This document shows, piece after piece, positions 3,118 through 48,600 of a stretch of 64,000 nt of DNA. A model generated the notes under the pieces. It saw only the letters and a program-made list of their open reading frames with translations, had not been told where the DNA came from and did no database searches. Source of the stretch: Escherichia coli (GTDB taxonomy: Bacteria > Pseudomonadota > Gammaproteobacteria > Enterobacterales > Enterobacteriaceae); the NCBI RefSeq assembly GCF_003018255.1, contig NZ_CP027441.1. One strand, 5' to 3'. A program made the translations under genes and the position numbers. Each line of letters opens with the position of its first letter. Position 1 is the first letter of the stretch.

Positions 3118-3555
3118 ATGGGCTGGTTCATCGTGTTCATCATGGTCATCACGACCACAGGCAATTTCTGGTTCACCAGTCAGCTCTCCCGCAGCGAACA
3201 CCGTCATCAGGCCGCAGAAAACACACAACAGGCAGCAACGTTCATTCGTTATATGAACGCCATCAATGATTACCTGCATCAGCATCCGGAACGACGGACA
3301 GCCGGAGGGCGGCTGACATCCGCTCAGCTCGGGATTCCCGGGACGGATACCGTCAGTCATATCATCAGCCAGCAACGTGTTTTTGTCTGGGCTACAGAAA
3401 CCCCGGGCCTGATGGCCGCGCTCAGGGAACAGAGTAATGACTCTGCTCTGCTCGGCAGGGTGGAAAACGGCCGACTGCTGGACACTGCCGGCAGAGCGCT
3501 TTCCATCACACTTCCGTCAGTGATCCCCGATCACGTCATCCTCTGGATGAATTAG
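3118..3555 (+). CDS. pilM: thin-pilus assembly protein PilM
   Basis: 145 aa, N-terminal hydrophobic segment; position and size. Confidence 0.65.
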   Translation: MGWFIVFIMVITTTGNFWFTSQLSRSEHRHQAAENTQQAATFIRYMNAINDYLHQHPERRTAGGRLTSAQLGIPGTDTVSHIISQQRVFVWATETPGLMAALREQSNDSALLGRVENGRLLDTAGRALSITLPSVIPDHVILWMN

Positions 3556-3585
3556 TCACGAATCTGAATAAATCACGGATCTCCC

Positions 3586-5205
3586 ATGAATAAAAAAATT
3601 CTTGCCATTATGATTGCCGCCGCTCTGTTACAGGGCTGTGCCAGTTACAGACAGCTTGAGAGCACAAGAAAGGAAGCCGTTGCGGAACAACAACGGGCAC
3701 GGGAAATGATGTCTGATCTGCGAACCCGGACGCCGGTTGTTAAGGAATCCTCACGACAATGGATCAATCCCCGTCCGGTCATGGATAAAAACACCGGCAA
3801 AACCGTTCCCGGTTGTCCCATTGTCATTCATACCCGTCAGAGCATCACCCTTCAGCAGGTGGTTCAGCGGATCACGGAAAGCTGCCATATTCCGGTACGG
3901 ATCACACCTGATGTACTGGCATACCTGAATACATCCACAACCGGCAGCACACAACAAATCCAGGGCGCGTTACCCCCACCGGATGCGAGCGGCATGGTTC
4001 CCCTTGCCGCCATTGGCGCATCCGACACGCCACCATCCCGTTTGCCGGGAAATACCGCAGCACTGTCTGAACTGAATGCCTCCGGCCTGACGACCCTGCT
4101 GAATGCGGTCTCCTCCCGTCTCGGTATATCCTGGCGCTATGACGGCTCGCATATCATCTTCTATTATCTCGAGACACAGACCTTCCCCATCACCTATATG
4201 GACAGTCAGGTGGCCTATAACGCCACTGTGGTCAGCGGCACCATGTCCTCAAACGGCTCATCAGGAGGCAGTGCATCAAATGCCATTTCCGGTGATGCCA
4301 GCAATACCCAGACCACCTCCGTGGATATGAAGTCTGCGCTGTATCAGGATGTGAAAAATGCGGTCACATCAATGCTGACCCCGGGTATCGGACGCATGTT
4401 CATGTCCACGGGCTTTATCACCGTCACAGATAATCCACAGGTTCTGGAAACGGTCCGGGCATTCATTGAAAAACGCAATGAAGAGATGAAACGTCAGGTG
4501 GTGCTGAATGTGGAAATTCTGAGTATCCGGAAAACCCGCAATGAGCAGGCCGGTATCGACTGGAACGCAGTCTTCAGCGACAGAACGCTGGGACTGAGTC
4601 TCGGCAGCACATTCACCAGTGCAGCCAGTGATGCCATCACAGGTGGTGTTTCCATTGTGGACGGTAAACTCACCGGTTCAAAAGCCTTCCTGAAAGCATT
4701 GTCTTCCCAGGGGGATGTCAGTGTGGTGACCCAGAACTCTGCCGTCACCAAAAACCTGACGCCGGTGCCAATGCAGATCGCCAATCAGCAAAGTTACATC
4801 GAGAGTGTGACGACGGATACCACAGCCAATGTCGGCTCATCCACCTCCCTGAATGCGGCCACCATCACCACCGGTTTTAACATGACCCTTCTGCCGTTCA
4901 TTCTCCCGGACTCACAGACACTGCAGTTGCTCTATTCCATGAGTCTCTCCGACAAACCGGTTATTGAGAATTATGAGAGCGGTGGAAGTAAAGCCCAGCT
5001 GCCGAATGTGGATCTGAAAACCATCAATCAGACCGTGGATCTGAAATCCGGGCAGACGGTCATTATCAGTGGCTTCCAGCAGTCAGGACGTCGCAGCGGA
5101 AAACAGGGGGTAGGCACGCCGGGATTCTTCGGTCTTGGCGGTGGGATCAACAGTGAAAACGACGACACCATTCTCGTGGTGCTGATCACGCCCAATATCA
5201 TCTGA
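3586..5205 (+). CDS. pilN: secretin-family outer-membrane lipoprotein PilN
   Basis: 539 aa; lipobox LQGC; Ser/Thr/Gly-rich beta-domain typical of secretins; position. Confidence 0.8.
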   Translation: MNKKILAIMIAAALLQGCASYRQLESTRKEAVAEQQRAREMMSDLRTRTPVVKESSRQWINPRPVMDKNTGKTVPGCPIVIHTRQSITLQQVVQRITESCHIPVRITPDVLAYLNTSTTGSTQQIQGALPPPDASGMVPLAAIGASDTPPSRLPGNTAALSELNASGLTTLLNAVSSRLGISWRYDGSHIIFYYLETQTFPITYMDSQVAYNATVVSGTMSSNGSSGGSASNAISGDASNTQTTSVDMKSALYQDVKNAVTSMLTPGIGRMFMSTGFITVTDNPQVLETVRAFIEKRNEEMKRQVVLNVEILSIRKTRNEQAGIDWNAVFSDRTLGLSLGSTFTSAASDAITGGVSIVDGKLTGSKAFLKALSSQGDVSVVTQNSAVTKNLTPVPMQIANQQSYIESVTTDTTANVGSSTSLNAATITTGFNMTLLPFILPDSQTLQLLYSMSLSDKPVIENYESGGSKAQLPNVDLKTINQTVDLKSGQTVIISGFQQSGRRSGKQGVGTPGFFGLGGGINSENDDTILVVLITPNII

Positions 5206-39005: not shown

Positions 39006-39212
39006 GGCAGAATGCCTGTCTGCCGTCTATCTCAGGACGCCGCATGGAGTCTCTATGTTTTCCCCACAAATTCTTAGCACTGTCTTGCCCACTGTAGACA
39101 AAATCAATACAATTCTGCATATCAGTTATCTATAAAAGATAACAATATCATTATAAATAATTATCATATCCACACACTCAAGGCAGTACCTAGAAAACAT
39201 AAAGATAAAATC

Positions 39213-40799
39213 ATGTCTGAATCCCGCAGCAATTTTCCAGCACGACATGGTACTCCATGGAATACTGAAGAGTTACAGCGTCTTCTCGTATCCATAGCGG
39301 AGGGCCTCTCGCTAAAAAAACTTACTCAAACACATCAACGATCGTCCGGGGGAATACGTGGAGCAATCAAACGCCTGCTTCCTTCTGAGTTTCTTGAGTT
39401 CAACGATATAAACACTGTGAATGATCTCAGCAATTACTTCAACAAGATTCCTCGCCAAGAACACAATAGTATCATCAATAATTTAATATCATTGAGCACT
39501 GCAAAAACAATTGCTCATGATAAAGTTGAAATACAAAAGAATAGTTTTAAACAAAATACCCCACTCCCCCTCTGCCAACCCAATACAGATTTTAAAGATT
39601 ATATAGCCGATGAACATGATGTCATTATGCTAATTCATTCTGCTATCGAAAGTTTATCTAATAAACGACATCAATATATTCTTCTAATGCGACTCGGCAC
39701 AGATGATTCACCTCATTCTCTGGCAGATATTGCCGTCAAATTAGGAATTTCCCGTGAAAGGGTAAGACAACTTCAGGAACGAGCCCTTGGCTTACTAGCT
39801 GCTAAATCTCGCTATGAAGGGACACCTGGAGCTTGCCTTAAAGCCCTTATTAACTCAATAGGTAATTCACCATATGATATAGCAGTATGGATTTATCGTA
39901 TTGTTCATCGGGATTTCGTTACATCCTCTGAGTTAGCCGCCAAATTCATTATTTTTACCGCAGGCATTCCTAAAGCAAGACGAGATGAAATAAAAAATTC
40001 GCTCTCATTAATATCACAATTACAAAAGCAGAGGTTACGTGAACGAAGAGCAGAATTAGCACACGCTCGCGCTCAGGAAAGAGCCCGAATCAAGAAAGAA
40101 AGAGTTGAGTTCATATTCAGTAAATGGCTAGACAATACACATTGGCCAAAATATATCGCACCTCCTCCCCCCGTAGAACAGCTATGTTCACAGAGAGCGG
40201 TTAATGATACTGACATATCTGGATTCTTTTACTCTCAAAAATTAGGTCGTACAGTCCAGTACGAATCAGGGCTTGAGTTTAAAATAATGAATCTATTAGA
40301 ATGTTGCGATCAGGTTCTTTTCTATCAAGAACAACCATTTTCTATTCCATATTGTTTTAAAAACAAATCAAAAAAATACTATCCAGATTTACTCATTGCG
40401 ACAGTTGATGGTCGGTGCCTACTTATGGAAGTGAAGCCAACAGACCGAATGACCTTGAGTCTCACGAGAATAAAAAGTAATGCAGGTCGCAAATGGGCAC
40501 ATACTCGAGGATGGGGATGGTTGGTCATTAGTGATAGGTTCTCGTTACGTCAGCTGGAAGAACATGCCATCTCAACAAACACATGGAAACTTATAGAGGC
40601 TGAACTGAAAACATCAAGGATTTTAGCATGGCGTGAAATGATGGAGTTACGTACACGATACGAGATTCATCGTTTAGATCTTATTGCATATATCATTCAG
40701 TCTGGTGCTGAAGTGGATAACTTTTATCGAATTACCCCGAAAATATCTAATAATACATCTAACCAGAGACAACCAAATGAGAGCAACTGTCATAATTGA
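39213..40799 (+). CDS. multi-HTH DNA-binding protein with C-terminal PD-(D/E)XK nuclease-like domain (528 aa)
   Basis: Low-GC gene; N-terminal Myb/GcrA-like segment (PWNTEELQRLL...GLS...IRGAIKRL); central sigma-70 region-4-like HTH (SLADIAVKLGISRERVRQLQERALGLL); C-terminal E...YYPDLLIATVDG...LMEVKP pattern. Confidence 0.6.
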   Translation: MSESRSNFPARHGTPWNTEELQRLLVSIAEGLSLKKLTQTHQRSSGGIRGAIKRLLPSEFLEFNDINTVNDLSNYFNKIPRQEHNSIINNLISLSTAKTIAHDKVEIQKNSFKQNTPLPLCQPNTDFKDYIADEHDVIMLIHSAIESLSNKRHQYILLMRLGTDDSPHSLADIAVKLGISRERVRQLQERALGLLAAKSRYEGTPGACLKALINSIGNSPYDIAVWIYRIVHRDFVTSSELAAKFIIFTAGIPKARRDEIKNSLSLISQLQKQRLRERRAELAHARAQERARIKKERVEFIFSKWLDNTHWPKYIAPPPPVEQLCSQRAVNDTDISGFFYSQKLGRTVQYESGLEFKIMNLLECCDQVLFYQEQPFSIPYCFKNKSKKYYPDLLIATVDGRCLLMEVKPTDRMTLSLTRIKSNAGRKWAHTRGWGWLVISDRFSLRQLEEHAISTNTWKLIEAELKTSRILAWREMMELRTRYEIHRLDLIAYIIQSGAEVDNFYRITPKISNNTSNQRQPNESNCHN

Positions 40800-40895
40800 T
40801 GACGCACAGGACGGAAAAAATAATAGCTGCCGGACAGCAGCAACCAGCAGTCGTCCGGTAAAAAAGACAAACAAGGCGCATTGAGGTCAGCCTTC

Positions 40896-40914: not shown

Positions 40915-41422
40915 TGTCCTGCCGCCGTGTTGCCCGTTAACGTTTAACTTCGTAGGCTAACGTTGCCACAAGCACTGTGTTTCCCTGCTCGACACGGAAT
41001 CCGCAAAGCGAATCCCTCACCATCCAGACAAAACACAGTATCGTCACACAGACGACAATTAACATTGTTAAAAACGTTCGTTGTGGCATCGCAGCCCCTC
41101 CATTGCCTTTCGGCCGTCATCGGGCTACTATAATGTTGTCGATGCATTACAGTAGAGCCCTGGGTTGATTGATAAAAAAATCGCCTGGGGCTTTCTGCTG
41201 CATGCCGTCCACAAAACGCTTTCAGCATACAGCCTCAAGCGCCCGCCGCTATTCTAATCGATTTTCAGTCTGCCACAATCGGTTTCCACCTAATGACATG
41301 TAATGCACAACAGTATTTTTACGGGAAACTACACGGCAAGGACTCCCGGAACACGTTCATTATTTTATGGTTACAGACATCATGTTAAATCCGGAAGTAA
41401 TAATGACCTGAAAGGAAATACT

Positions 41423-41665
41423 ATGAGTAACGAATATCAAAGCACCAGTATAAACCCTGATGTTTTTGAACAATTTCTTACCCTCCTGAATACACACTGT
41501 AAATCATCAGAAGCTGCACTTGCTATGCTGAGTACACTCTGCTACGAACTGATGAGGAGGAGTGGGATCCATTCACTGGACAGCCTGATGCTCAACGGAG
41601 AAGGTATATTGATACAATTACAGGGGGCTGATATTCGCGAAAAAACAGGTCAGCATATTCACTGA
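41423..41665 (+). CDS. hypothetical small protein (80 aa)
   Basis: ATG after AGGAAATACT; track ORF 41303..41665 trimmed; no motif. Confidence 0.4.
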   Translation: MSNEYQSTSINPDVFEQFLTLLNTHCKSSEAALAMLSTLCYELMRRSGIHSLDSLMLNGEGILIQLQGADIREKTGQHIH

Positions 41666-41705
41666 TCCAGGGATGTGCTGAAAACAGTGTCAGCCTGAAA
41701 TAAAC

Positions 41706-41738
41706 GCTCAATGCCTCATACACATGGGGCATTGAGCA
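41706..41738. terminator. bidirectional hairpin between convergent genes
   Basis: CTCAATGCC / GGCATTGAG 9-bp inverted repeat. Confidence 0.45.
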
Positions 41739-41757
41739 CGGTCATCAATAATCTTTA

Positions 41758-43314
41758 TTATTTTTCTGATTCAACATTTCCGGTCAGTATCGGCTCTTCT
41801 GGCAAAGACAGTACCGGAACGTCACGTTCACCATTGAATACAAAAACACTTTCAGCGAAATCATTCTGTAACAAAGAAAAACTTAACGGCAGATTTTTAG
41901 TTTGTATCCCTGTGAGCCATTGAAAAATCTCGGGAAAACGACGTGCACTGATATGCACATGATTGAGGTGGTGCTCAGTAATATCACTGGCCATCATCAT
42001 GAGAGGCACATCGTATCCCGAACGCAAACCTGGCGCATGATGCACAGGGGTGCTGTCTGAACTGACGGATTGCCCATGATCAGAAAAATACAGCATGGCA
42101 AAATCATCACCATGCTCTGTCGTCATGTTATAAATTGCCTGAAGAAACCGATCCAGTTTAAGCAGTGTTGATAAATAACAGGATACTTTATGTCCGAATA
42201 ATTCCCTGAATGGCTGTGCATCATTAAAAAGTCGGTCACAGGGATTAGTGTGAGACCCCAGCATATGAATAAAAATCACTTTTGGAGAAGACGAGTTAAC
42301 AGCTTCCCTGACATACTGAAGCATATCCTCATCATCAATGCGAAGGGAAGAAGAGCTCCCTTCCTTAAGAAAATGTTTTTTATCCGCATTGGCGGCGATG
42401 ACAGAAATCAGCGTATCATGTTGCCCTAAAGAGCCCTGATTTGATATCCACCACGTCTCATACCCGGCTTTTCTGGCAAGCGTAACAATATTATTACCCG
42501 GATTACCTGTTTCAGTGTAATCAAGCGTCAGTGTTCTGCTGAGTGAACCTATCGTATTCGGCGCTGCTGAGAAATACCCATTAATAAATATACCCGGAGC
42601 AGAATTCAGCCATGGTGTTGTCGGCAAAGGATACCCATAAACAGAAAGATAATCCCGTCGGACACTTTCACCAATTACGATAATTATGGTTTTATATTTC
42701 TTCTCCACACTCACAATATCCCATGAGTCTTTCTGATTGTTTTTCAGCGATTCATATCGCATCATTTCTTCTCTGGTTTCAGCTATCCCTGTCATTACAT
42801 TCGTAACCATACGTTTTGGCCATGCATTTACTGACAATACGATAAAGAACAACAGAAAGATAAATCCCCGGTGGCTTTTATCACGCTTACGCCAGAACCA
42901 GAATGTAAAAGCAGCAATGACCAGCGAAACAATAAAATAAAGAACAGGTATGCCTGTGATAAACTCACCTGCCTCATTTATATTTGTCTGCATTACAGAC
43001 GCAATAAAACTGTTGTTTATTTTCCCGTAAATCATCCCAACCGGAGCATAGCATGCACTTAACAAAAGAAAGATACAGACACACGTTGCTGAAATAACAT
43101 TCCGCCGCCCCAACAACATCATCAGGAACAATATAAGCACATTCCCCAGGGCGTTTTTCACTGTATATCCGCAGCACCATGTAACAAGTACAGAAAACAA
43201 CAGATAAATCAGTGACTCTTTACACCACAACATAAAATAAAACTGTTTTGCTCTCTCAAAAGCATATTTTGACTTTTCTTTAATACAAGACACGCCGGTC
43301 ATTTTCCTGTACAA
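41758..43314 (-). CDS. sulfatase-family integral membrane enzyme (phosphoethanolamine / phosphoglycerol transferase-like)
   Basis: 518 aa; about five N-terminal transmembrane helices then a soluble domain with IIIVIGESVRRDYLSVYGY and later His/Asp-rich metal-site-like motifs; low-GC; true start may be an internal Met. Confidence 0.65.
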   Translation of the reverse strand: MYRKMTGVSCIKEKSKYAFERAKQFYFMLWCKESLIYLLFSVLVTWCCGYTVKNALGNVLILFLMMLLGRRNVISATCVCIFLLLSACYAPVGMIYGKINNSFIASVMQTNINEAGEFITGIPVLYFIVSLVIAAFTFWFWRKRDKSHRGFIFLLFFIVLSVNAWPKRMVTNVMTGIAETREEMMRYESLKNNQKDSWDIVSVEKKYKTIIIVIGESVRRDYLSVYGYPLPTTPWLNSAPGIFINGYFSAAPNTIGSLSRTLTLDYTETGNPGNNIVTLARKAGYETWWISNQGSLGQHDTLISVIAANADKKHFLKEGSSSSLRIDDEDMLQYVREAVNSSSPKVIFIHMLGSHTNPCDRLFNDAQPFRELFGHKVSCYLSTLLKLDRFLQAIYNMTTEHGDDFAMLYFSDHGQSVSSDSTPVHHAPGLRSGYDVPLMMMASDITEHHLNHVHISARRFPEIFQWLTGIQTKNLPLSFSLLQNDFAESVFVFNGERDVPVLSLPEEPILTGNVESEK

Positions 43315-43493
43315 ACACAGACGATCATTTCAACGCATGGATATTTATATGAAACAGTTCACAAAAATACCCTACCCTGTTCAGCAACATTGACATATTA
43401 TCAGATTCTGTGTTTACAGCAACTGCTCTCCGGACCAGATTATTCACATAACCCGATGAATGACTCATCATCATGATGAGTCTCAGCATTCAT

Positions 43494-43949
43494 TTAGTTA
43501 ACAAAAATATTTCTTGCCTTCCCGGAAAGACAAACATACGAAAGAGAAAGCATGGCTATAATAATATCAATCAAAATATTCTCAATCTTTCCGGTTGTCA
43601 TACACTCAGCACCGACAACATAAAGACAATAAACAAAAGTGATAGCATAGTGCGATATATAAAGGAGATGAATGGCCAGAAGTAATTTTCCTACCACTCT
43701 TTTTCGTTTAAAGAAGGAATAAATGAAGAGCAAACATAACCCTGACAGAAAAAGAAAGGTAGCAATGGAGATTATAAAATACTCCGTCACCTGTGAATCC
43801 TCTTCCAGAGATGAATACAGCGAATAATATGTGGTTGTGAGATTAAGTCTTGTTATCAATATATAAACAACTGATAATAGTATAATATAAAGAATCAGAC
43901 CAAATCTGTTTTTCTGCGCTCCGGTTAATACTTCTGATTTATCTCGCAT
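43494..43949 (-). CDS. hypothetical polytopic small membrane protein (151 aa)
   Basis: Four hydrophobic helices; low-GC; same strand and directly upstream of the sulfatase-family gene. Confidence 0.45.
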   Translation of the reverse strand: MRDKSEVLTGAQKNRFGLILYIILLSVVYILITRLNLTTTYYSLYSSLEEDSQVTEYFIISIATFLFLSGLCLLFIYSFFKRKRVVGKLLLAIHLLYISHYAITFVYCLYVVGAECMTTGKIENILIDIIIAMLSLSYVCLSGKARNIFVN

Positions 43950-44036
43950 AAAATATCCTGTCTGTAATCTGTCCCGGTCAACAACAGTAAACGTCAGAAT
44001 CAGTACGAATACGGTAACAAAGATTCCTCCTGTGCG

Positions 44037-44660
44037 TTAAAGTGCACAGGCAGAAACCAGTCTGGTGGTTCCGGTCAGGGAGTCTGATACCTCAACTTCC
44101 CGGGTGACTATAACCATACCTGACTGACGCAGTCTCTGCACATCAGCGGCAATTCGCTGAGTTCCCGGCCAGAACAGGCCATCCAGTGCCGTTACCAGCA
44201 ACCCGCTTTCCAGCGCCAGTTTCAGCCGTGCCGTCGGGGCTTTAACCTGCCCGGAAATATCAGTAAAACAACGCGTCGTCATGCCATAGCAGTCCAGCCG
44301 CCGTATTCGCGTCGCAAGACTGTAGCTGAAACAATCCGGCACGCCGGATAAGTCATTCCGCAGACTGTATACACATCCCCGCTGCCGCCCGTTGAACAGG
44401 GCTTTTTTCTGGCTGAGTAGCCATTCCCGACGCAGAGTGTCAATCATCTGCGGTGTCCGGGTTAACAGCAGACGAAACGGCAGCTCAAAACTGGTCACAT
44501 CATCAACATTCAGTAATGCTGTCCGCAGTCGCTCCCTGGCTCCAGCCCTGGTCTCCCGGCATTCACGCATGACATAAGCCCACTGACGCATCAGTCGTGG
44601 AGACTCATTCCTCGCCCTGAACTGATATTTCTCAATATGATAATCAATACGTTCCTGCAT
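44037..44660 (-). CDS. hypothetical protein (207 aa), Arg-rich, higher GC than neighbours
   Basis: Clean ORF; size and composition recall YagK/YfjJ-type prophage proteins, but this is not verified. Confidence 0.45.
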   Translation of the reverse strand: MQERIDYHIEKYQFRARNESPRLMRQWAYVMRECRETRAGARERLRTALLNVDDVTSFELPFRLLLTRTPQMIDTLRREWLLSQKKALFNGRQRGCVYSLRNDLSGVPDCFSYSLATRIRRLDCYGMTTRCFTDISGQVKAPTARLKLALESGLLVTALDGLFWPGTQRIAADVQRLRQSGMVIVTREVEVSDSLTGTTRLVSACAL

Positions 44661-44818
44661 ATCGCCACCAGATATCTGTTGTTTACCCAGACACAGTTAT
44701 TAGCCTACAGGAATAAATATCCTCCGTGAAGTCAGGTGCCTCAGAAGATAAAAACATGTATTTTTTCAACGCGTAATATTAACGTCATCCCCATAAAAAT
44801 AAATCAGGAAAATATAAA

Positions 44819-45205
44819 ATGATAAAATATATATTCGCACTCACTCTTCTGCTTTCCGGTTCTGTCTGTGCCGTTCAAATTCAGGGACTCGTTATTCGTG
44901 TGCTGGACGGTGATGCTCTGGAGATATTACAGGCCCGGCACCCCGTGAGGATTCGTCTTGTTAATATTGATGCACCGGAAAAGAAACAGCCTTTTGGGCG
45001 CAGGTCAATGAATCAACTTAAAAGCCTTGTGGTAAATACGCCCGTAACCGTGACATACACACAGACAGACCGCTACGGGCGTATTCCTGGACGGGTATAT
45101 ACCGAAGACGGCATGGAAGTTAACCGCTGGCTGGTACAGCATGGTGCAGCCTGGGTATATCCTGATTTCAACACAGATTACACCCTGCCGGTATACCAGA
45201 GATAG
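44819..45205 (+). CDS. secreted thermonuclease-family (SNase-like) nuclease
   Basis: 128 aa; signal peptide MIKYIFALTLLLSGSVCA; IRLVNIDAPEKKQ matches the Ca-dependent staphylococcal-nuclease active-site region. Confidence 0.65.
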   Translation: MIKYIFALTLLLSGSVCAVQIQGLVIRVLDGDALEILQARHPVRIRLVNIDAPEKKQPFGRRSMNQLKSLVVNTPVTVTYTQTDRYGRIPGRVYTEDGMEVNRWLVQHGAAWVYPDFNTDYTLPVYQR

Positions 45206-45678
45206 GTCAGAACAATGAAGCGGGGTCTGTGAGCAGATAAAAAACCTGTTCCTCCATGGCTGTGGCGAAAAGAAAATAAAAAATGACCGCACAGAATTAC
45301 AAATAAAAAACATCTTGGCGTAATATATATTTTCTCTGCTCCATTATTTTCCCTGTTTACAGTCAGCAAAAAACGCCCGAAGCAAAACAAACACGAATAA
45401 TAAACCTGCCCGATGCATCCATTACAAAAATGAATCCTTCCTCTTATGGAAAATACAGTAACCACAATGAAAAATAAACAGATAAAGATGATACTTATCT
45501 CACAAGGAAAAGCACTGGTGAAAACATAAGGCTCACTTAACTTTTTCACCCTGTAGAATCTTATTTTTTCATGGACATGTTATTTTGTTGATTTTAAAAT
45601 ATCAAAATGAGTGAATGTATCACATCACTCATAAAGTGGATATTATCACGAAACAATCTATTAAATAGCAGATACAAC

Positions 45679-48600
45679 ATGAATAAAATTTACTCACTAA
45701 AATATAGTAGCCTTACTGGTGGGCTTATAGCTGTATCAGAGTTAAGTAAAAAAGTTAAAGGAAAAACAGGCAGAAAATTAATGACTGCTTCCGTTGCTTT
45801 ATCTGTGAGTCTTTCAGCCTTACCCGTAGAGGCATCAACGGTCAGCGCTGAAATACCATATCAGACTTTCCGTGATTTTGCTGAAAATAAAGGCGTATTT
45901 ACACCTGGTGCAACCGGAATTGAAATAAAAGACAAAAATGGAAACCTGACTGGCGTTCTCAATACCCCCATGCTTGACTTCTCCAGTTTGTCTCGAGATG
46001 GTCATACGACGCTGATTCATCCTGGCTATGGTGTTTCTGCAAAACATGGGAGATTGCAGAGTCTTAAGACAGCCACCTTTGGTTATAATGCCGAATATAA
46101 AATAGTTAATAACAATCATGCATCATATGATTTCACAGCTCCACGATATAGTAAATTAGTAACAGAAGTTATTCCAGTTAACACTGGAGATGGGAAATAT
46201 AACGACAGTAAAAAATATACGGCATTTTATAGAGCTGGGGTTGGTGACCAGTATATAAAGGATAAGAAAGGGAATCATACACTCCTGAACAGATATGCCC
46301 CCCAAAATGCTTATCTGACAGGTGGTACTGTCGGCACTCCCTATTATGGACGTGTCAGCAATCAAACTGTTCTCATTAGTTCTCCAGGGAATACATTTAA
46401 TCAAACCCATGGACCTTTGGCAAGTTATGGCCAGTCAGGAGATAGTGGCTCTCCTCTTTATGCATGGGATAACATACAGAACAAATGGGTTCTTGCTGGA
46501 GTTACGTTATATAATGAAGGCGTTAATGGCTCTCGCAACTGGTGGCTGGAACTCCCTAATTCTTTTATAAATGAGACAATAAAAAGTGACTCAAAAGAAA
46601 TTGTTGTAAAAAACAAGAAAGAAGATATCACCTGGAGTTTTGATAAAACTCAGGGCACTGGTGTTATTAATCTTGAAAGAAAAGACCATATAATCAATGG
46701 CCATAAAAACAACAACCCAGATTACGGGGATAATATCGTTTTCTCTGGGGAGGAAGGCGTTATAAACATAAAGAACGATATTGCTCAGGGGGCTGGATTT
46801 ATTCAGTTTAATAACAATTATATCGTATCTACACAAAATAACAGTACATGGACAGGTTCTGGCATCATTGTTAATGATGGAAGTGAAGTATATTGGGGAA
46901 TTAATGGTGTAAAAGATGATAATCTTCACAAACTAGGAAGCGGCAAGCTGATTATTAATGGTAATGGTATAAATACAGGGGGATTAAAAGTAGGTGATGG
47001 CACTGTGTTACTTAGTCAACACAAAGATGCTGAAGGGAGAGTTCAGGCATTTAGTTCTGTAAATATTTCCAGTGGACGTCCTGTTGTTGTGCTGTCAGAT
47101 GATAAGCAGATTAATCCTGATAATATATCATGGGGATACAGAGGTGGTACTCTTGACTTAAATGGGAATAATATTACATTTACCCGGATACAGGCCTCCG
47201 ATTATGGTGCCATCATTACTAACAATAATGATAAGAAATCAATAACCAACCTGAATATTAGCACCCTAAAAGACACTGATATCAATGTTTCCGTTAGTGA
47301 TGTTCATGTGCTTGGCGGAAAAGGAAAACCTGGTGATTTATTTTATGACAGAGGGACAGGCAGATACCTTATTCTGAAAAAAGAAAAGTATTCACCATTT
47401 TTTCAGGATGTAAATAATACCAGCGTCTGGCAATATGTGGGAAAAAACCGTAATGAAGCAATAGCAGTAGTTAAGAGTGAAAAAATCAAAAACAGTAGCA
47501 AACCTTATCTTTTTCATGGGCAATTAAATGGCAACATGGACATTAATATTCAGAGCGGCATGGGCGTTAATACCTTTGCGATAGATGGCTCAGTCAATAT
47601 ACCAAATGGAACTTTAAGTAATAAGTTAGGCAGCCTTATATTCCAGGGACATCCTGTCATTCATGCCGGGGTCGGTGTTTCTGCAGAACAGAATGATTGG
47701 GAGACAAGGTATTTTACCCTCAATACCCTCAATCTGGATGGTTCTGATTTCCATTTATCCCGTAATGCAGTTATGACTGGAAATATTCATGCCACCAACT
47801 CAAGTAAGGTAACGCTGGGTAGTTCAAGTGTTTATGTTGATCGTAATGACGGTACAGGAGAGTCAGTTAACTCAACATCTGCTACAGCGTCAGATATAAA
47901 TGAGAAGGATTTAAGCAAATTTACTGGAGATATTACAGCAGACAACTCAAACATTATCATAAACAATAAATTCGAAGGTGGTGTTTCCGCTGTAAATAAA
48001 AGCGCCATTGATATTCATAGCCAACACGCCGTAATTAACAGATGGAGTGATATATCAGACAACAGTAAACTAACTTTAAAGAAAAATGCAACCCTTACAG
48101 TTAACACTGGATTGGTTAATAAAGGCACTATTGAAATCGGAGAAAATGCGGAGTTAAATCTTCAGGGATATCCGATTGCTGATAAATTCATTCCGTCACT
48201 ACATGACCTGGGGAATGTGAAAATGACGGCGTCAAATGCCACCCTGACGGCAGGTAATTATGCAATGTTCAGCGGTGAGATCACTGCCGATGACGCCACT
48301 GCTGTCAGAGTTAACCTGGGCTCAGAGACATCAACACTCTCTGAATTTAATCCTAATCCGGAACTGACCGACCTGATGTTTGATAAATATAATACATCAT
48401 GGACCGGCAAAATCTCTGCCCTGAAAGGCGATGCATCAATGGTTAATACTGTATGGCGTATGACGGGAGATTCCGGGCTTAATACCCTCAAAACCAGCAA
48501 ATCCCTGACGGTATTCAGCAGTGATAATAAATTCTCCACGCTGACAGTTAATGACCTGACAACCAGTGACAGCACCTTTGTGCTGCGTTCTGACTCTACA

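Follow-up and report, generated by a model that had tools for sequence, protein, structure and literature searches.

A predicted phosphoethanolamine transferase of the YjgX group in the variable excA–trbA slot of a pO113-type Escherichia coli plasmid

Which envelope component would be modified by a putative phosphoethanolamine (PEtN) transferase that is carried among the conjugation genes of an Escherichia coli plasmid? The question is raised by a gene at 41758..43314 on the minus strand of a 64,000-nucleotide stretch of E. coli contig NZ_CP027441.1 (assembly GCF_003018255.1), referred to below as the window. A gene for a small membrane protein of the DUF2569 type lies directly upstream on the same strand. 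RefSeq/PGAP annotation of the larger gene already reads “phosphoethanolamine transferase”, and interest lies mainly in the uncharacterized YjgX subfamily that it represents. On balance, its product is somewhat likely to be a functional, metal-dependent PEtN transferase of the inner membrane that acts on an envelope glycan, most likely the lipopolysaccharide (LPS) core.

Enzyme class and gene integrity

An earlier note, made from the letters of this DNA, described two open reading frames (ORFs) on the same strand, of 518 aa (41758-43314, minus) and 151 aa (43494-43949, minus), and both are present as described. The 518-aa ORF is read from a TTG codon; an ATG at 43302 (514 aa, as in homologue P0002) or a GTG at 43293 (511 aa, the PGAP choice) is the likelier start. 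The ORF is full-length in all six copies extracted, and its ratio of nonsynonymous to synonymous substitution rates (dN/dS) is 0.17–0.20, also when compared with a variant of only 71% identity. The gene is intact, real, and under purifying selection.

Pfam searches of the 518-aa protein return a Sulfatase domain (PF00884, E 7e-38, residues 208-469) and an EptA_B_N domain (PF08019, E 3e-6, residues 61-158), and five hydrophobic segments lie within residues 27-170, in keeping with the five transmembrane helices and sulfatase-type domain that had been described. When solved structures were searched by sequence, E. coli EptC ranked first through its periplasmic domain (1e-22), in an alignment that paired the catalytic motifs, and NmEptA and MCR-1 came next. 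An AlphaFold2 model computed with an alignment of 73 homologues reached a pLDDT of 89.8 and a pTM of 0.87. Foldseek paired this model with EcEptC (E 4e-19) and, in alignments 525-532 columns long, with the structures of full-length MCR-1 and NmEptA. By sequence and model, the protein is thus predicted to be a polytopic, sulfatase-fold enzyme of the PEtN-transferase type.

The metal-binding and catalytic residues are conserved. In a multiple alignment, E216, T254, H350, H355, D412, and H413 of the transferase correspond to E246, T285, H390, H395, D465, and H466 of MCR-1, H425 aligns with H478, and T110 and E114 of the membrane domain align with T112 and E116. The catalytic residues and T110/E114 are invariant in the 73-sequence homologue alignment (E114 being E110 in the 514-aa numbering). 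A membrane motif of the T112/E116 type is needed for donor lipid handling. The nucleophile had initially been placed in the GES motif. Since T254 and E216 align with T285 and E246 of MCR-1, GES is instead a metal-ligand motif whose glutamate is E216, while the nucleophile, T254, lies within “APNTIGS” about 38 residues downstream. A broken gene or the loss of catalytic residues and metal ligands had been named as grounds for dropping the enzyme reading; with an uninterrupted ORF, conserved residues, and purifying selection, neither was found.

The chemistry can be proposed with good confidence from the homologous enzymes EptA, MCR-1, and EptC. Phosphatidylethanolamine in the outer leaflet of the inner membrane would be taken up by the five-helix membrane domain, which bears T110 and E114. 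The periplasmic domain, of the alkaline-phosphatase fold and with a predicted zinc site of E216, D412, and H413, would then form a covalent PEtN-Thr254 intermediate, setting diacylglycerol free, and the PEtN would be handed on to an acceptor exposed to the periplasm. Of the two transferred groups originally suggested, PEtN or phosphoglycerol, the first is retained as the probable one, as all matches are PEtN transferases. The second is not, given the lack of similarity to the Opt protein, which resembles lipoteichoic acid (LTA) synthases.

The YjgX group within an OpgE-like radiation

Reference proteins for BLASTP were taken from K-12, an mcr-1 plasmid, pO157, and pSFxv_2. The transferase matched OpgE (YbiP) with 227 bits and 30% identity over 490 aa (E 3e-71), a Proteus mirabilis homologue with 218 bits, and a small-plasmid E. 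coli protein with 169 bits. Lower scores were obtained for EptC (112 bits), pO157 Ecf3 (108), and YhbX (91), and lower ones still for EptA (58), EptB (50), and MCR-1 (50, at 22% identity); no similarity to Shigella flexneri Opt of pSFxv_2 was detected (E 0.84). NCBIfam models gave a similar picture, with 110 and 101 bits against CptA models (cut-offs 404 and 900), 76 bits against EptA (cut-off 561), 38 against EptB (cut-off 493), and 17-28 against the MCR-1 to MCR-8 models (cut-offs 1100-1250). By tblastn, the translated K-12 pseudogene yjgX gave 52% identity and 313 bits, OpgE giving 181 bits at the same locus. P0011, a chromosomal cluster with many members, shares 89% identity with yjgX.

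In a neighbor-joining tree of 120 sequences, the transferase and its 68-96% identical relatives group with YjgX-type proteins (~50%) of E. coli, Salmonella, and Erwinia, and the next proteins outward are those of Kluyvera, Frischella, and Aquitalea (~35-40%). This OpgE-like radiation is set apart from EptC/CptA/Ecf3, from EptA/MCR-1, and from EptB, with YhbX as its sister, and true OpgE falls in another subclade together with Proteus and Photorhabdus proteins. The homologue search returned 302 clusters (50% identity, E <= 1e-30), so the radiation is broad and nearly all of it is uncharacterized. The family comparison proposed in the earlier note thus places the transferase, by sequence, as a YjgX-group member inside the OpgE-like radiation and not as an ortholog of EptA, EptB, EptC, or MCR. 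Nor does it share the subclade, the high identity, or the ompX-adjacent core locus that would mark an OpgE ortholog.

Its nearest counterpart is YjgX itself (pseudogene b4575 in K-12). Intact island copies of YjgX (P0006-P0019) are ~50% identical to the transferase, have the same length and the same catalytic residues, and fall in one clade with it. They differ in being chromosomal and often following an Adr-like gene, whereas the plasmid form is ~50% diverged and follows a DUF2569 gene. OpgE, which adds PEtN to the osmoregulated periplasmic glucans (OPGs) of E. coli (PMC3818809), likewise combines a multi-pass membrane domain with a periplasmic sulfatase fold, is 30% identical over its whole length, and presumably uses the same donor. 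It is, however, a core protein of E. coli, while the plasmid transferase occurs in ~2% of genomes, lacks ompX synteny, and belongs to another subclade. EptC/CptA gives the best solved-structure match for the periplasmic domain, and its relative Ecf3 is a precedent for an LPS-core PEtN transferase on plasmids of enterohemorrhagic E. coli (EHEC), but identity to these proteins is only 23-28%, they form another clade, and the present gene is not within an LPS operon. MCR-1 and EptA share the overall fold, the threonine nucleophile, the zinc ligands, and the membrane T/E motif, and differ in their ~22% identity, in scores far under the family cut-offs, and in forming a separate clade.

The pO157 precedent lies in the ecf operon of the pO157-type plasmid p17B6-1 (L020, 1285-6095), in the order polysaccharide deacetylase, GT4, CptA-like PEtN transferase, and LpxM. 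The CptA-like protein is 27.6% identical to the transferase over 46% of its length. Many O157 plasmids thus have a different plasmid-borne PEtN transferase.

Opt (Lpt-O), the PEtN transferase of the S. flexneri O-antigen, is comparable in being plasmid-borne without accompanying biosynthetic genes, but PGAP assigns it to the LTA-synthase family. It was briefly considered as the closest relative because a 28%-identical protein of a ColE1-like plasmid was first taken for Opt; the opt primers have no match in that plasmid, and the candidate was rejected. The gene concerned is a PEtN-transferase-like gene encoding a 546-aa ORF (3258-4898 of NZ_CP110981.1, a 6.7-kb ColE1-like E. coli plasmid, L002). 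Repeats of the QINQMN type (MNQINQINQMNQINQMNQMNQINQINQIKQMKQMKQ), in a run that could vary in length, are encoded at its 5′ end, and PGAP annotates a shorter CDS of 388 aa.

Chromosomal YjgX-type genes were found in 2730 of the 5426 complete E. coli genomes (1449 with at least 80% coverage), and 3690 of 3693 places are chromosomal. They sit in tRNA-associated islands of the pheV, leuX, and selC types (PMC6174562), often after a gene for an Adr-like outer-membrane protein. A sizeable, unstudied branch of PEtN transferases therefore appears to circulate in E. coli: roughly half of the complete genomes have a YjgX-group gene, in most cases on an island, and pO113, pO26, and IncK/Z plasmids carry a diverged form. 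The papers found on yjgX treat it only as an integration site within a pseudogene, or use it as a false-positive control.

The outer-membrane beta-barrel gene that precedes the YjgX-type gene on the same strand encodes ~240 aa, and the arrangement was seen in pheV islands of E. coli as well as in an integrative element of Salmonella. Together, the two genes make up a recurring module (L003 7113-9500; L004 1-2049; L029 6054-8503). An ancestral OmpX-OpgE-like pairing was considered for the island copies and rejected, as the neighboring outer-membrane protein is Adr-like and not OmpX. A phage-borne origin by lysogenic conversion, prompted by a PHROG match, was also set aside: tblastn of 50,697 phage records gave only distant EptC/EptA-like matches, mostly in records resembling bacterial contigs.

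Other members of the radiation occur in glycan gene clusters. In Proteus mirabilis H110 (L021 5923-12579), an OpgE-like gene lies beside a WaaB-like gene, a GT2 gene, and two RfaI/J-like genes, and in Photorhabdus (L010 6001-11277) an OpgE-like gene lies within a glycosyltransferase cluster (GT4/GT2/Caps_synth).

Candidate acceptors

The LPS core, or another surface glycan, is ranked first as the acceptor of the transferase, with a likelihood held somewhat below even. OPGs are ranked second, at an appreciably lower likelihood. Several considerations place the core first. The Proteus OpgE-like homologue lies directly upstream of WaaB-like and RfaI/J-like LPS glycosyltransferase genes, and the Photorhabdus homologue lies in the glycosyltransferase cluster described above; such contexts suggest that part of the OpgE-like radiation may act on LPS and not on periplasmic glucans. 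The Kluyvera homologue adjoins an Acyl_transf_3 gene. Chromosomal opgE is present in 5421 of the 5426 genomes, so a plasmid enzyme for OPGs would be redundant. Haemophilus ducreyi, which makes no OPGs, has the OpgE-like enzymes PtdA and PtdB (PMC4406763). Finally, the pO157 ecf operon offers a plasmid-borne precedent.

That the transferase is instead a plasmid isoenzyme of OpgE, adding PEtN to OPGs and perhaps raising or deregulating their substitution, is rather unlikely, although OpgE is the closest characterized protein among the references compared and has the same architecture. OPGs are made in every E. coli host, so that no further biosynthetic genes would be needed, which fits a gene that travels alone. 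Against this stand its position outside the OpgE subclade, the near-universal chromosomal opgE, the OpgE-like enzymes of bacteria without OPGs, and the location of the subclade nearest OpgE in LPS glycosyltransferase clusters. Moreover, loss of opgE gave no phenotype (PMC3818809), which makes selection for a second copy hard to explain.

Several points weigh against the LPS core in turn. Among the references compared, OpgE is the only characterized protein with similarity along the full length, and it acts on OPG (PMC3818809). The relatives with glycosyltransferase contexts are only ~30% identical and fall in a different subclade, and close relatives of the transferase stand alone or beside the outer-membrane-protein gene, without glycan genes. 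The neighbor-joining tree carries no support values and was built without Lpt3, Lpt6, PetG, and PtdA/B. A literature search for functional work on any YjgX-group member, or on this plasmid gene, found none. As to expression, a weak sigma-70-like pair (TTGCTG-16-TAATAT, ~43420-43390) can be read by eye in the 179-bp spacer between the DUF2569 and transferase genes (43315..43493, minus strand), but a consensus promoter scan listed nothing above threshold in that spacer, and the pair is for this reason called only a putative promoter.

If the LPS core is the acceptor, PEtN could alter surface charge, sensitivity to serum and peptides, and receptors for phages or conjugative pili in EHEC; if OPG is the acceptor, the effect would probably be subtle. 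One such consequence may be considered at this locus. In I-type thin pili, the PilV adhesins recognize particular disaccharides in the LPS core of recipient cells (PMC10654706), and the transferase gene is two or three genes away from excA, a gene for surface exclusion, on a plasmid that has a PilV thin pilus. PEtN on an LPS-core sugar could edit the receptor of PilV adhesins or of core-specific phages and so serve exclusion or phage protection, although this is very unlikely; the pO113 shufflon is reported to be inactive (PMC3377399). If true, receptor editing would be a new role for PEtN transferases and might explain why YjgX copies are common on E. coli islands.

Lipid A had been offered as another target in the earlier note, with an effect on polymyxin susceptibility. 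The 1- and 4′-phosphates of lipid A are probably not the acceptor of the favored LPS-core-type enzyme, and accordingly the gene is not expected to confer polymyxin resistance. A mobile lipid A PEtN transferase that lowers polymyxin susceptibility, like MCR or EptA, would share the superfamily, the fold, the catalytic residues, and the plasmid location seen here, and some sources do label members of the cluster “lipid A phosphoethanolamine transferase”. Such a function is nevertheless the least probable of the acceptor readings weighed here, in view of the 50-58 bits to MCR-1 and EptA, the MCR model scores given above, and the separate clade. In addition, the position of MCR-1 K333 is a gap in the transferase, E468 is replaced by Gln, there are just two cysteines in the periplasmic domain, and AMRFinder annotation of these plasmids marks epeA and not the transferase gene. 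The earlier note's remark that the protein does not look like MCR-1 is borne out by the low identity, and a hidden mobile colistin-resistance gene on Shiga-toxigenic E. coli (STEC) and I-complex plasmids is unlikely from this result.

A protein acceptor, such as a pilin or a flagellar rod protein (as for PptA and Campylobacter jejuni EptC), or a polymer such as enterobacterial common antigen, capsule, or cellulose, is also highly improbable. PEtN transferases of the superfamily do modify proteins and cellulose (reviewed in PMC10525099), and the plasmid encodes a type IVb thin pilus. However, no specific similarity to PptA-type or BcsG-type enzymes was seen (BcsG being a distant fold match), and chromosomal YjgX copies occur without pilus genes.

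The excA–trbA slot and the DUF2569 neighbor

The plasmid itself is readily placed. Region 41000-44800 is 99.6-99.8% identical to pO113 (NC_007365) and to related large plasmids of STEC, and by this identity the window appears to be part of a pO113-type, I-complex conjugative plasmid of STEC. Over the matching span (with a coordinate offset), pO113 is annotated with an IncI-type pil operon including PilV, traH-traY, excA, trbABC, a relaxase, and the EpeA autotransporter, in agreement with the conjugative setting proposed from the letters. The low G+C content noted there is likewise confirmed, at 0.41 for the transferase gene and 0.336 for the DUF2569 gene; the window as a whole has 0.511 and the tra backbone 0.562. 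I-complex (IncI-gamma/K/Z) plasmids have, between excA and trbA, a variable slot in which the transferase gene is accessory content. Papers linking pO113 with phosphoethanolamine were sought and none was found, and papers on I-complex and IncK plasmids are silent on the gene.

The stretch holding the transferase and DUF2569 genes (at least 80% coverage) occurs in 112 of the 5426 complete E. coli genomes, with 177 of 178 occurrences on plasmids. In PLSDB, about 110 plasmids have the transferase (at least 60% identity) and 116 have the DUF2569 gene. The order hok, 80-aa ORF, transferase, DUF2569, ECs1377-family gene, and thermonuclease between excA and trbA recurs in three further plasmids, namely an IncK2/Z plasmid from a healthy person, a plasmid of a Swiss stool isolate, and pO26_H19_1. 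The stretch is not specific to STEC.

Elsewhere the slot is filled differently. For instance, pCT (IncK1) lacks both the transferase and the DUF2569 gene there and has a pair of small ORFs (122 and 71 aa) in the slot. A transferase variant of 71% identity occurs with small ORFs in a pCT-like arrangement (loci L007/L008), and F-type ehx plasmids keep the DUF2569 gene while the transferase is cut by an IS3-family element. The IncI plasmid pHB42-5 also keeps the DUF2569 gene and lacks the transferase; by BLASTN, the segment missing there is 1.92 kb long (41441..43360) and takes in the transferase gene with 46 bp of upstream sequence and the body of the 80-aa ORF, its right junction falling at 43360/43361 within the spacer. 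The junction in pHB42-5 is clean, without target duplication or terminal repeats, and its left end lies 11 nt after the ATG of the 80-aa ORF. That the break falls inside this ORF suggests a deletion in pHB42-5 and not an insertion here. Insertion of the transferase gene as a mobile element was considered and rejected, since no direct or inverted repeats flank it and a deletion reads better. More generally, the slot between the 80-aa ORF and the ECs1377-family gene varies among I-complex plasmids, with junctions that lack repeats.

The DUF2569 gene (43494..43949, minus) lies 179 bp upstream of the transferase gene on the same strand. Its 151-aa product has four hydrophobic segments, consistent with the polytopic protein described from the letters, and matches DUF2569 (PF10754) weakly (E 3.9e-7, residues 18-150 to model positions 15-143 of 143). 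Its dN/dS is ~0.3, and a search for distant homologues returned only close copies in E. coli plasmids. Next upstream is a 207-aa ECs1377-family gene (44037..44660, minus; NCBIfam NF052300, 278 bits, cut-off 190; also phrog_24243 and a faint HTH_39), which opens the same-strand series ECs1377, DUF2569, and transferase. A PADLOC search for defense systems returned nothing for the transferase, DUF2569, or ECs1377 proteins.

The small protein had been presented as a membrane partner of the enzyme. A dedicated two-gene system, in which it would act as a regulator, deal with diacylglycerol, or present the acceptor to the enzyme, is distinctly unlikely. The two genes do share a strand, lie close together, and co-occur in the 112 genomes; the most divergent DUF2569 variant (83%) again adjoins a transferase, and the synonymous divergence of the two genes is similar. 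All co-occurrences, however, come from one plasmid lineage and so amount to a single evolutionary event. The DUF2569 gene survives where the transferase is deleted or IS3-cut (L012, L011, L032-35), pCT lacks both genes, no YjgX-group or OpgE-like homologue outside this lineage has a DUF2569 gene beside it, and in a selC island the two gene types are 10 kb apart. DUF2569 stays instead with the ECs1377 gene, which accompanies it in every examined plasmid that retains it; pCT has an ECs1377-type gene without DUF2569. The DUF2569 gene is thus best regarded, from its genomic contexts, as a linked neighbor within one plasmid lineage rather than as a proven partner.

Divergent from the ECs1377-family gene is a gene for a secreted SNase-type thermonuclease (44819-45205, plus), and this pair is conserved beside DUF2569 in I-complex and F-type ehx plasmids. 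The nuclease ORF may be truncated here, as it encodes 128 aa against 160-167 aa elsewhere and is unannotated in pO113. Directly after it, inside the excA–trbA interval, lies the gene for the EpeA serine-protease autotransporter (45607-49758, plus; 100% to the AMRFinder epeA reference in pO113), and an autotransporter occupies the equivalent place in pO26_H19_1.

On the other side of the transferase gene, an inverted repeat with 14-nt arms and a 4-nt loop (41706..41737, 93% complementary) lies between two convergent genes and is likely a bidirectional terminator, judging from its sequence and position. The convergent gene is the 80-aa hypothetical ORF (41423..41665, plus; PGAP CDS WP_001398505.1 in pO113), for which family searches gave no match. 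Beyond it is the hok toxin gene (40937-41089 and 41087-41244, minus) with a full-length sok antisense RNA (RF01794, 119.7 bits). The Rfam search over 38-52 kb returned sok and one other RNA, of the AgrB type (RF02891, antisense by Rfam type; 51679-51767, plus), and no regulatory RNA upstream of the transferase gene. The AgrB-type RNA lies near the position where pO113 is annotated with a DinQ-like toxin gene, dqlB, and two type I toxin-antitoxin loci (hok/sok and the AgrB-type locus) thus flank the cargo region.

Farther out, a 1.84-kb block (39028-40868) is missing whole from pHB42-5. It holds a 528-aa ORF (39213-40799, plus) that has been noted as “putative sigma factor pCT_066” for pCT, pO26_vir, pO113, and pSERB1 (PMC3377399). 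Its product joins a sigma-70 region-4 HTH (~130-200) to a TnsA-like endonuclease N-terminal domain (~330-440), an odd combination of domains in a single ORF.

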